Assembly: GCF_000026545.1 (NCBI RefSeq)
Contig: NC_011601.1
From: Escherichia coli O127:H6 str. E2348/69
Lineage (GTDB): Bacteria > Pseudomonadota > Gammaproteobacteria > Enterobacterales > Enterobacteriaceae
DNA: 64,000 nt
Reading direction: 5' to 3' (one strand)
Made by a program: the position numbers. Below, in pieces: positions 3,001 to 6,000 of this stretch (its first letter is position 1; the number at the start of each line of letters is the position of its first letter).

Positions 3001-6000
3001 GTCAGTATTTTCTCACAGCTGTCATTTTGTGTTTCTTCACTGATACCGCCCTGCCGCAGGCCCAGCACCCGCACCGCGATAAACGCCTTGATAACCACCA
3101 TGCGCTCGAGGTTATCCCGGGTCTGCATTCGCAGCGATTCCACACATGTACCACCACTTTTCCACGCCTTGTGGTATTCCTCTATCAGCCAGCGTCGCTC
3201 GTAATGGCTGACGATACGTCGCGCATCGGCGGCACTCGCCACTTTTTCTGACGTCAGCAGATGCCAGCAGGCGCCGTCCTCTGCCTGCTCCCGGCAACAG
3301 ACATACGTGAGCGGGAGCGCCTGGCCGCTGTTGTCGGGATTTTTTATGCTGACTTCGCTGTAACTGATGAACATCCGGGCCTGGCGGGCTGCCCGCCCGC
3401 CTTTTTGCATCACATTCAGCGTGTGGCTTCCCGCGGTTGCCAGGACTTCCGGCAGTTCGAAGAGCTTGCCGGGTGCTTCTTCCAGCCGGCGATTCTGTGC
3501 TGCACGCACCACGAAGCGCTGCCCGTGGCTGACTTTATAATGCAGGTAATGCCAGATATCCGCTTCCCGGTCACAGACAGTGATTACCCGTTTCTGTATC
3601 TCCCCCAGCCGTTCGGCCATGCGCTCCGAAGCCTGCTGCCAGCGGTAACTTTCTTTTTCTTCATAGGGACGTTCTTTTCGCTGGTGCTTAACACCGTAGG
3701 TGTCCGTGGCACGACTCCAGCGCTGCTGTTCGATAAGACCGACTGGCAGGGCGCTGTCGGGGGCGTACATCAGGACAGAGTGAGCCAGCAGCCCGCGCGT
3801 CTTCGGGTTAGTGGTGGTATTCCCCAGGTCATCAGATGCCGTACTGTGACTGAAGTTAATGGTGGTGGTGTCTTCCAGCGCGAGGAGCAGCGGATGAGCC
3901 TCACATGCCCTTACAGTGGCGGTAAATCCGGCTTCGGCAATGGCTTGCGGGGACACAGACGGGTTACGTATCAGGCGGTACGCACCTTCAACCTGAGCAG
4001 TGGACTGGGATGATTTCACAATAGAAAGACCTGCATGCTGAGCGAGAGAAGAGGCCAGTGACACAAGGCGTCGTGTACGACGCGGATCACCGAGACGGGC
4101 ATGTCCAAACTGCTCGTTAGCCCATGAATAACAATCAGAAAGTACCATAACAGACCCGAAGAAAATGAAATATAAGAGAAGATCAACAGGTGAGGAAAAA
4201 GTTCAAAAAATCGCTGCCGGGGAGGAAGGAAACTACCGGATGGAAAGAGTCCCCCTAAAGCAGACTGACAGACATCACAAATCCCCGGGTGGGGATTTGT
4301 GTATAAGAGACAGGTTTATCGACAGGGGTAAAGAACACCGGGCTTTGCCAGCTAATTTCGCGTTTGATGAATTCGTAGCGCGGCACCTGCGACACCGCCG
4401 CACGGTTAACCAGCTCCAGGTGGGAGAAGATCACCTGGGTGGTGGTGGTGCCGATATCGATACCGACGCTCAGTAGCTGGCGAGTGTTCACGATTGCGCC
4501 TCCGCTTCAGTTTTAGCCGCGGTCGCGTCTTCTTTTGGCACCAGCATCATCGCCACGCCAATTGCCGTTACGCCGCCGATCAATTTGCCGACAATCATCG
4601 GGAAGATCATGGCGTTCATGTTGGCAGCGGCGAAGCCTAAATGGTCGCCCAGGGCGAAAGCAGCGGAAACGGCGAAGGCGCAGTTGATGACTTTGCCGCG
4701 GGTATCCATCTGCTTCATCATGCCAAACATCGGAATGTTGTTGGCAAGCGTTGCCACCATGCCGGCTGCCGCGATATTGTTCATATTCAGCACCTTACCG
4801 ACGCTCATCAGCGGTTTTTCAAACCAGCGAGTCAGCAGCAGTACCATTGGATACGCCCCTAACAGAACGCAGGAGATCGAGCCGATAACTTCAATGGCGC
4901 GCATCACTTCACCGGGTTTATCGCCAGGGGCCATAAAGATAGGATCAAGACCCGGGATCAGTTCCCAGCCAAGGAGGAATTTCACTACCGCAGCGGCAAG
5001 ACCGAGGGTGATCAATGCAACGAGGAATTTGGCGAAGATCTGGAAGCCGTTGATCATTTTTTCCGGGATGAATTTCAGCCCCAGCGCCACCAGCACCGCA
5101 ACGATAAGTACCGGGATCATGTTCATCAGGATCAGCGCAAAGGTGAATTCAACAGGCTGGCCGTTGATCTGCACACCGGAGTACATCGCTACCAGACCAC
5201 CAGCGATACAGCCAATCGGAATGGTCACTATGCCCGCCAGCACGCCGAGCGCCAGATAACGACGGTCAGAAGGTTCGATAATGCCGAGCGCCACCGGAAT
5301 AGAAAACACAATCGTTGGCCCCATCATCGACCCGAGAATTAACCCAGAGTATAGCCACGCTGCTACGTCACCGCCCGCCAGCTCTTTGGCGAGGAAGAAG
5401 CCGCCCATATCGCACGCCAGCAGTGTTCCGGCGAACATTGACGGGTTTGCGCCGAGCATTTCGTAAACCGGGATAATCACCGGTCCGAGAACGTGGGCCA
5501 GTACCGGTGCCAGTGCGGTCATACCGACCATCGCCAGGCCCAGAGCGCCCATTGCCATAAAGCCTTCTTCGAACTGACCGCCGGATCCTTCGATACTTTT
5601 ACCGAACTTACCGAGGAAACGAGCAGAACCGCCGAACTGCGACAGGATCCTGTCTACGGCAGCTATCAGCATAAAGAACATCATGATATACATGATGATT
5701 TCGTTAATTCCCATCGCCTTTACTCCCTGTTAGTTGTTATTTATTGGCGGATGCGGCGTGAACGCCTTATCCGCCCTACATGTGCAATCCCGAAGGCCAG
5801 ATAAGACGCGGCAAGCGTCGCATCCGGCAATTGCACCGCGCCACTGGCGGATGCGGCGTGAACGCCTTATCCGCCCTACATGTGCAATCCCGTCGGCCGG
5901 ATAAGACGCAGCAAGCGTCGCATCCGGCATTTATTGCGCCGCTGCGTACAGGCCGACAATCTGCTCCAGGCTGGCGGTACGCGGGTTACTGCGCAGACAA

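Follow-up and report, generated by a model that had tools for sequence, protein, structure and literature searches.

EutG, an ethanol dehydrogenase, and EutH, the ethanolamine permease, are encoded side by side in the polycistronic eut operon. In the 64,000-nucleotide stretch of Escherichia coli O127:H6 str. E2348/69 analysed here (contig NC_011601.1; hereafter the window), both genes lie on the minus strand, eutG (5931..7118, RefSeq annotation; stop codon TAA at 5933-5931) upstream and eutH (4488..5714, open reading frame list and RefSeq annotation) immediately downstream of a tandem array of palindromic repeats that takes up most of the 216-bp gap between them (5715-5930). The translation of eutG is 395 aa long and ends in LYAAAQ; in the open reading frame list the gene extends to 5931..7145 from an upstream GTG. 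An earlier note on this DNA had located the array in the eutG-eutH gap, as part of the operon transcript. The RefSeq annotation of an identical E2348/69 sequence agrees: a 901-bp query around the array matched NZ_CP059840.2 at 100%, where the annotated genes are eutG and eutH on the minus strand.

Structure and identity of the array

Tandem Repeats Finder delimited the array at 5745-5929, with a period of 100, 1.9 copies, 95% matches and a score of 342. A repeat search retrieved two 88-nt copies, 5745-5832 and 5845-5932, with 94% identity and starts 100 nt apart; the units differ at five of 86 aligned positions (5793, 5794, 5799, 5810 and 5830). The earlier note had described a near-identical pair of ~83 bp with a 99-bp period. 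The two near-identical units were recovered, but the period is 100 bp and the repeated block measures about 85-88 bp. The span it gave, 5747-5929, is 183 bp, which is also the length of the element REP178 of strain K-12 (2568140-2568322).

The array consists of repetitive extragenic palindromic (REP) sequences of the y and z2 types, arranged on the sense strand as z2(inverted)-S-y-linker-z2(inverted)-S-y, and all of its parts are described here in the minus-strand orientation of the operon. The first hairpin on the transcript is a z2-type REP (5892..5929; z2 core match, -23.5 kcal/mol), in which GTCG (5892-5895, +) replaces the flanking GTAG and whose stem begins 2 nt past the eutG stop codon (TAA-AT-GCCGG). 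It is followed by a short S-type linker of 12 nt (5880..5891; sense GGGATTGCACAT) and by a y-type REP with an exact match to the y core (5845..5879; -20.9 kcal/mol), whose 5' GTAG is unchanged when read in sense (CTAC at 5876-5879, +). A 15-nt inter-unit linker (5830..5844; sense GTGGCGCGGTGCAAT), the junction made by the tandem duplication, leads into the eutH-proximal unit. This unit comprises a z2-type REP (5792..5829; core match, -20.6 kcal/mol) with GAAG (5792-5795, +) in place of GTAG, the second copy of the 12-nt S linker (5780..5791), and a y-type REP (5745..5779; y core match and fold) that forms the final hairpin before eutH. The four palindromes are 35-38 nt long, within the 30-40 nt of REPs, with sense hairpins of -20.6 to -23.5 kcal/mol and, in each stem, the internal mismatch that is typical of REPs. 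Folding of the whole gap on the sense strand gave -108.8 kcal/mol (z = -4.2 against dinucleotide shuffles). The last hairpin ends 30 nt upstream of the eutH start codon, and these 30 nt (5715..5744) form a unique eutH leader with a Shine-Dalgarno sequence, GGGAG, at 5723-5727 (+).

The y units match GTAGGacgGATAAGgCGttCACGcCGCATCcGGCA apart from a compensatory change at the foot of the stem (GGGCGG/CCGCC). The z2 units bear GATAAGaCG...CGtCGCATC and were called as z2 from the entry for the Z2 unit in Table 1 of PMC2817692. GTAG 5' of the palindrome foot is needed for binding and cleavage by the REP-associated transposase TnpA-REP (PMC3333891). Both y units keep it (CTAC at 5776-5779 and 5876-5879, +), and it is altered at both z2 units of E2348/69; K-12 has GTAG at both z2 units. 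The 12-nt linker and the y-foot variant are common to both eut units and specific to this locus, both being absent from a second z2/y pair in the window (47246-47340), which shares the canonical z2 core with other eut alleles but has a different linker (22 nt) and y foot. Since the units share these locus-specific features, they descend from a duplication in situ and not from two separate insertions. Five REP cores lie in the window beyond the eut array, those of this pair and three single ones at 19272-19295, 36054-36075 and 40739-40760. The array itself is wholly extragenic, and the 901-bp query that contains it found a median of seven places per genome.

Bacterial interspersed mosaic elements of the second class (BIME-2) are defined by y and z2 palindromes in alternating inverted orientation, in tandem units with a short S linker, whereas a long L linker with a site for IHF characterizes BIME-1 (PMC3333891). 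In the eut array, two tandem units carry y and z2 palindromes in alternating inverted orientation with linkers of 12 and 15 nt. BIME-1 was considered and rejected: there is no long linker, and the IHF core WATCAANNNNTTR is absent from both strands of 5715-5930. Judged by its sequence, the array is a canonical BIME-2 and the orthologue of K-12 REP178, and as such it had already been catalogued: REP178 is listed as a tandem element with eutG upstream and eutH downstream (supplement of bioRxiv 10.64898/2026.03.23.713779). The two share their flanks, the 216-bp gap, two 100-bp y/z2 units and a 183-bp extent, and differ by a few point changes, K-12 having a CCAGCC variant, and GTAG at both z2 units where E2348/69 has GAAG and GTCG. 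A literature search for papers that tie eutG, eutH and REP together found nothing specific.

The y-linker-z2 segment at the centre of the array (5795..5876) matches the Rfam family RF02564 (naRNA4) in the eut sense orientation, with 75.5 bits against a gathering score of 59.5. Together with the y and z2 cores and their alternating inverted orientation, this match upholds the identification as a BIME made in the earlier note. Arrays of N units contain N-1 inter-unit linkers and yield N-1 such matches, four in a five-unit array (L005) and none in a one-unit allele (L002). At a permissive E-value, Rfam returned naRNA4 alone in or beside the array, plus one chance-level match to a long non-coding RNA inside eutG (6164-6245). 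The closest well-studied relative is REP325 (yjdM-yjdN, naRNA1-6), the founding array of RF02564, which likewise lies inside an operon between co-oriented genes, with y and z2 in tandem units of exactly 100 bp, the y-linker-z2 segment in sense orientation and membership of RF02564. It differs in having six units instead of two, other linkers and another z2 loop, and its six units score 95-111 bits. REP hairpins also lie between genes of one operon at malE-malF, hisJ-hisQ and nrdA-nrdB. In the work of Liang, Rudd and Deutscher (2015), nrdA-nrdB is reportedly a case of a REP close to the stop codon; at eut, the distance from the stop codon is 2 nt. The work of Higgins and Newbury reportedly made malE-malF and hisJ-hisQ the classical intercistronic REPs.

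A consensus scan for hairpins followed by a U-tract found no terminator within 5745-5929, and a scan for sigma-70-like promoters found none between eutG and eutH. In the absence of both signals, eutH would depend on read-through across the array. The only two matches of the terminator scan, one on each strand, correspond to a 19-nt palindrome, CATCATGATATACATGATG, at 5679-5697, within the first codons of eutH (IIMYIMM). This palindrome is probably a by-product of the Ile/Met-rich N-terminus of EutH. In K-12, the operon segment from eutT to eutA has gaps of more than 40 bp at only two junctions, eutG-eutH (216 bp) and eutM-eutN (106 bp), and the remaining junctions range from -11 to +38 bp.

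Variation within E. coli and across species

BIME-2 elements occupy the same locus in most isolates and are polymorphic in length (PMC1187871), and their variability between strains is documented (PMC3333891, PMC1187871). Synthetic queries built solely from the eutH and eutG flanks were run against 5,426 complete E. coli genomes, the gap being taken as the span of the joined match, and allele frequencies were estimated from two samples of 59 evenly spaced rows (n = 118, with at least two genomes in both samples). These frequencies reflect a database biased to clinical lineages, and some of the long arrays could be mis-assembled. Two-unit alleles, as in E2348/69, accounted for 44 of the 118 rows (37%; gap of 216/215 bp; 24 rows in sample 1 and 20 in sample 2), and one-unit alleles for 37 (31%; 116/115 bp; 17 and 20). 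Three units were found in 14 rows (12%; 316 bp; eight and six), four in two (2%; 416 bp; one in each sample) and five in nine (8%; 515/516 bp; four and five). This 100-bp ladder thus covers 106 of the 118 rows, and the variation in copy number that the earlier note had predicted is real, with one to five units among the sampled genomes. The other rows carry either the decayed remnant of O157:H7 (99 bp; three rows in each sample, 6/118 or 5%) or a BoxC pair (169 bp; two and four, 6/118 or 5%). No empty eutG-eutH site was found in the 118 rows. Considering that a joined match was missing in just 17-18 of 5,410 matching genomes, disruptions of the locus or arrays of more than about seven units must be rare. 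In every E. coli allele examined the 30-nt eutH leader is identical and the Shine-Dalgarno sequence is spared.

The two exceptional alleles depart from the array in different ways. In O157:H7 strain F7386 (L003, 616-714), a 17-nt deletion abolishes the z2 hairpin (-3.9 kcal/mol), and substitutions together with a 1-nt deletion weaken the y hairpin to -11 kcal/mol; the 99-bp allele is a natural near-null. The decayed y variant is also the last unit of the array of Escherichia sp. E1V33 (L010). In NRZ14408 (L004, 646-784), the same boundaries enclose a 139-bp inverted pair of BoxC/TMECO triplex motifs, and the gap holds no REP. This allele contains the exact 36-mer CCCTCGCCCCTTTGGGGAGAGGGTTAGGGTGAGGGG, which is listed for K-12 in PMC4666352; the family occurs at a median of 15 places per genome. 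BoxC/TMECO is, like the REPs, a dispersed intergenic repeat family, and it fills the same gap in ~5% of the sampled E. coli. It differs from them in carrying CCCTC/GGGAG triplex motifs instead of REP palindromes, and it is absent from the E2348/69 window.

Comparison of alleles suggests how unit number changes. The two-unit allele of K-12 equals the four-unit allele of TW11681 minus 200 bp removed in register, from the second z2 to the fourth y. PEC209 carries one unit only, which matches the last unit of TW11681 exactly, and the eutH-proximal unit of E2348/69 is identical to the last unit of the five-unit array of N17. Flanks of 400 bp that are 100% identical to K-12 accompany one, two, three or four units (rows H101-H115), so unit number changes faster than point substitutions accumulate. 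Some variants are private to one array and spread through it: E. coli E-1246 (L007, 1272-1786) has a linker single-nucleotide polymorphism, CTACAGG, in all five units, another array (L011) carries its own linker variant in every unit, and an array from an Escherichia species (L051, 2027-2500) has a compensatory double change of the y stem, GGGTGG...CCACC, in four of five y units. In-register steps of 100 bp and array-wide private variants are the mark that unequal exchange or slippage leaves when arrays evolve in concert. Most simply, units are gained and lost by unequal homologous exchange or by replication slippage between units, with homogenization of the array. The REP-associated transposase possibly helps: recombination between inverted REPs with their linkers by TnpA-REP was shown in vitro (PMC3333891), and the enzyme could contribute to changes of the eut array.

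Beyond E. coli, a scan for EutH in one genome per species retrieved 50 loci, of which 48 had a measurable eutG-eutH gap. In 22, it is 27-48 bp long and free of repeats; these loci belong to six Citrobacter, Yokenella, a Pluralibacter metagenome-assembled genome, Buttiauxella, Hafnia, Morganella and others with a more divergent eutG. The gap is 60-578 bp long in the other 26, and all 25 whose sequences were read contain palindromic repeats. The y/z2 array recurs in Escherichia species (116-578 bp); many Citrobacter carry a REP pair of 119-123 bp in the opposite order, with the GTAG-REP first, and Klebsiella carries 170-216 bp of Klebsiella-type REPs. A single REP is present in Salmonella enterica subsp. 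diarizonae (67 bp) and C. sedlakii (60 bp). With few exceptions, the repeat in a filled gap begins no more than about 15 nt past the eutG stop codon (up to ~35 nt in Klebsiella) and spares the ribosome-binding site of eutH. That Citrobacter, Klebsiella and Salmonella have their own REPs at this junction, arranged otherwise than in E. coli, suggests repeated independent colonization. In a Pseudocitrobacter metagenome-assembled genome (L014, 2378-2500), a chimeric pair joins a y REP and linker close to those of E. coli eut to a short z palindrome of the Citrobacter type, a possible sign that the eut region has recombined or been transferred between genera.

Probable effect on the eut transcript and alternative explanations

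The effect of such an array is best known from REP325, which stabilizes the upstream yjdM, lowers the downstream yjdN ~8-10-fold and yields a ladder of transcripts ending at hairpins (bioRxiv 10.64898/2026.03.23.713779). Genome-wide, expression in tandem gene pairs with an intervening REP is biased towards the upstream gene (bioRxiv 10.64898/2026.03.23.713779). The earlier note had suggested that the array may stabilize mRNA or terminate transcription in part, with consequences for eutH and eutA-C. By analogy with REP325 and other REPs, we infer that the array would influence expression of the eut genes, and the best explanation of the locus, to which we assign a probability of roughly 0.7, is a BIME-2 (REP178) whose main consequence would fall on the polycistronic eut mRNA. 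Considering that 22 of 48 loci are free of repeats, that the element has decayed in O157:H7 and that BoxC replaces it in ~5% of E. coli, the simplest reading is that it is dispensable for eut function and that few other sites in the operon can retain repeats of this kind, although selection for hairpins at this junction is conceivable. Four stable hairpins, of about -21 to -23.5 kcal/mol each, are predicted to form on this mRNA. They would block 3'-to-5' exonucleases and so modestly stabilize the upstream eutS-eutG segment, and they may cause a partial, modest attenuation of read-through into eutHABCLKR that increases with unit number. The hairpin 2 nt past the stop codon may in addition slow termination of EutG translation, with some damping of EutG synthesis. 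REPs less than 16 nt from a stop codon reduce translation of the upstream gene (Liang et al. 2015, as relayed in PMC12306157). In proteomics of W3110, scaled to the most abundant Eut protein (EutQ = 100), EutG stands at 7, EutE at 27 and EutB at 37; the low EutG value is consistent with such a stop-codon effect but not diagnostic of it.

Several observations weigh against a transcript-level effect, or at least against a strong one. REP325 is partly Rho-dependent, but only as the full six-unit array; its fragments of two to four hairpins, the size of the four-hairpin eut array, showed no such dependence (bioRxiv 10.64898/2026.03.23.713779). In W3110, which carries a two-unit array, the downstream proteins EutB, EutC and EutL reach 37, 24 and 39 relative to EutQ = 100; these levels argue against strong polarity at the protein level, which for the two-unit allele would be at most partial. 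In vitro Rho-binding peaks of K-12 at or near REP178 (2568056-2568201 and 2568390-2568551) are on the plus strand, antisense to eut (bioRxiv 10.64898/2026.03.23.713779). The curated Term-seq 3' ends and Rho-region tables of MG1655 have no eutG/eutH entry, which is uninformative, as eut is not induced in LB or glucose. Natural alleles range widely, from a decayed remnant to five units, as if any quantitative effect were only weakly constrained. As for the strains themselves, in K-12 MG1655 (L001, 1-1481) the operon is broken downstream of the array by a cryptic prophage, CPZ-55, directly adjoining eutA, and a mSystems 2024 paper takes W3110 as eut+ and BW25113 as interrupted.

Alternatively, the array might be a neutral passenger, selfish or junk repeat DNA in a gap that tolerates insertions, whose one or two units would leave eut expression measurably unchanged. 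A passenger would sit easily with the 22 repeat-free loci out of 48, with the decay in O157:H7 and the BoxC allele of ~5% of E. coli, with a K-12 segment that has only two gaps above 40 bp, with unit numbers that vary between identical flanks, with the Rho independence of the short REP325 fragments and with the abundance of downstream Eut proteins in W3110. Yet it is unlikely that a strongly induced mRNA would be unaffected by four hairpins of about -21 kcal/mol each that follow a stop codon directly, and the upstream-biased expression at REP325 and genome-wide speaks for an effect. An inert filler also fits poorly with the lack of an empty site in the 118 E. coli rows, with the filling of the same gap by several genera with their own REPs and with the compensatory y-stem change of L051 (GGGTGG/CCACC), which keeps the pairing. 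On balance, we consider full neutrality plausible but rather unlikely.

A role at the level of DNA has less to recommend it. The array could be a strong gyrase site, independent of transcription, in the middle of the operon, acting on the supercoiling of the 17-gene unit or on chromosome organization. Some BIME-2 elements, a subset, are enriched in sites of gyrase cleavage, with a preference for y REPs, of which the eut array has two, and the cleavage signal rises and does not fall when transcription is blocked (PMC6379681). However, only a subset of BIME-2 elements is cleaved, the available part of the Topo-seq supplementary text of PMC6379681 does not mention eutG or eutH, and a working eut operon occurs in many lineages and genera that lack the element or carry a decayed form of it. 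Such a role, which would be compatible with effects on the RNA, is improbable as the main explanation.

A naRNA4-like non-coding RNA made from the central unit, binding HU and condensing the nucleoid, is more improbable still. This function was first proposed for the RNAs of REP325 (PMC4550694), and the eut unit matches RF02564 above the gathering score in the transcribed orientation, but the match reflects common y/z2 sequence and not a demonstrated function. Deletion or over-expression of REP325/naRNA4 leaves nucleoid volume unchanged and contacts between REPs were not detected (bioRxiv 10.64898/2026.03.23.713779), and one-unit alleles, 31% of the sampled rows, have no such central unit. A separate signal within the array, be it an intrinsic terminator, an internal eutH promoter or a small protein gene, can be dismissed: the array lacks both a hairpin with a U-tract and a sigma-70-like promoter, and although a 66-aa open reading frame (5730-5930, minus strand) crosses it with its ATG directly after the eutG TAA, the 100-bp unit is not a multiple of three, the product of 66 aa in two-unit alleles becomes 29 aa with another C-terminus in the one-unit allele, and the peptide is translated REP sequence.

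Significance for the eut operon

As found, the array matters little in itself: no bacterial repeat family is better known than the one to which this annotated element belongs, and variation in length is textbook behaviour for BIME-2. What is added here is a locus-specific allelic ladder of one to five 100-bp units, with in-register gain and loss and homogenization within arrays, together with natural knock-out alleles (the O157:H7 remnant and BoxC) and the repeat-free sites of other genera.

The effect on the eut mRNA that we favour leads to a more speculative proposal, which we regard as doubtful: unit number might act as a heritable rheostat, setting a graded polarity between eutSPQTDMNEJG and eutHABCLKR and thereby shifting the threshold of ethanolamine induction between lineages. 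The eut operon of Salmonella is autoinduced by its activator EutR, whose gene lies at the distal end. With a distal, autoinducing EutR, graded polarity would translate into a shifted induction threshold. If this were true, polarity would be graded across alleles of one to five units (two to ten hairpins), the O157:H7 remnant and the BoxC allele, and the filling of the gap with REPs in Escherichia, Citrobacter, Klebsiella and Salmonella would reflect selection and not mere tolerance.

The eut operon matters for gut colonization and pathogenesis, and the stakes of this variation would be higher only if unit number alters the expression of eutH-eutR or the induction threshold. The natural allele set provides a ready series on whether REP dosage tunes expression within an operon.

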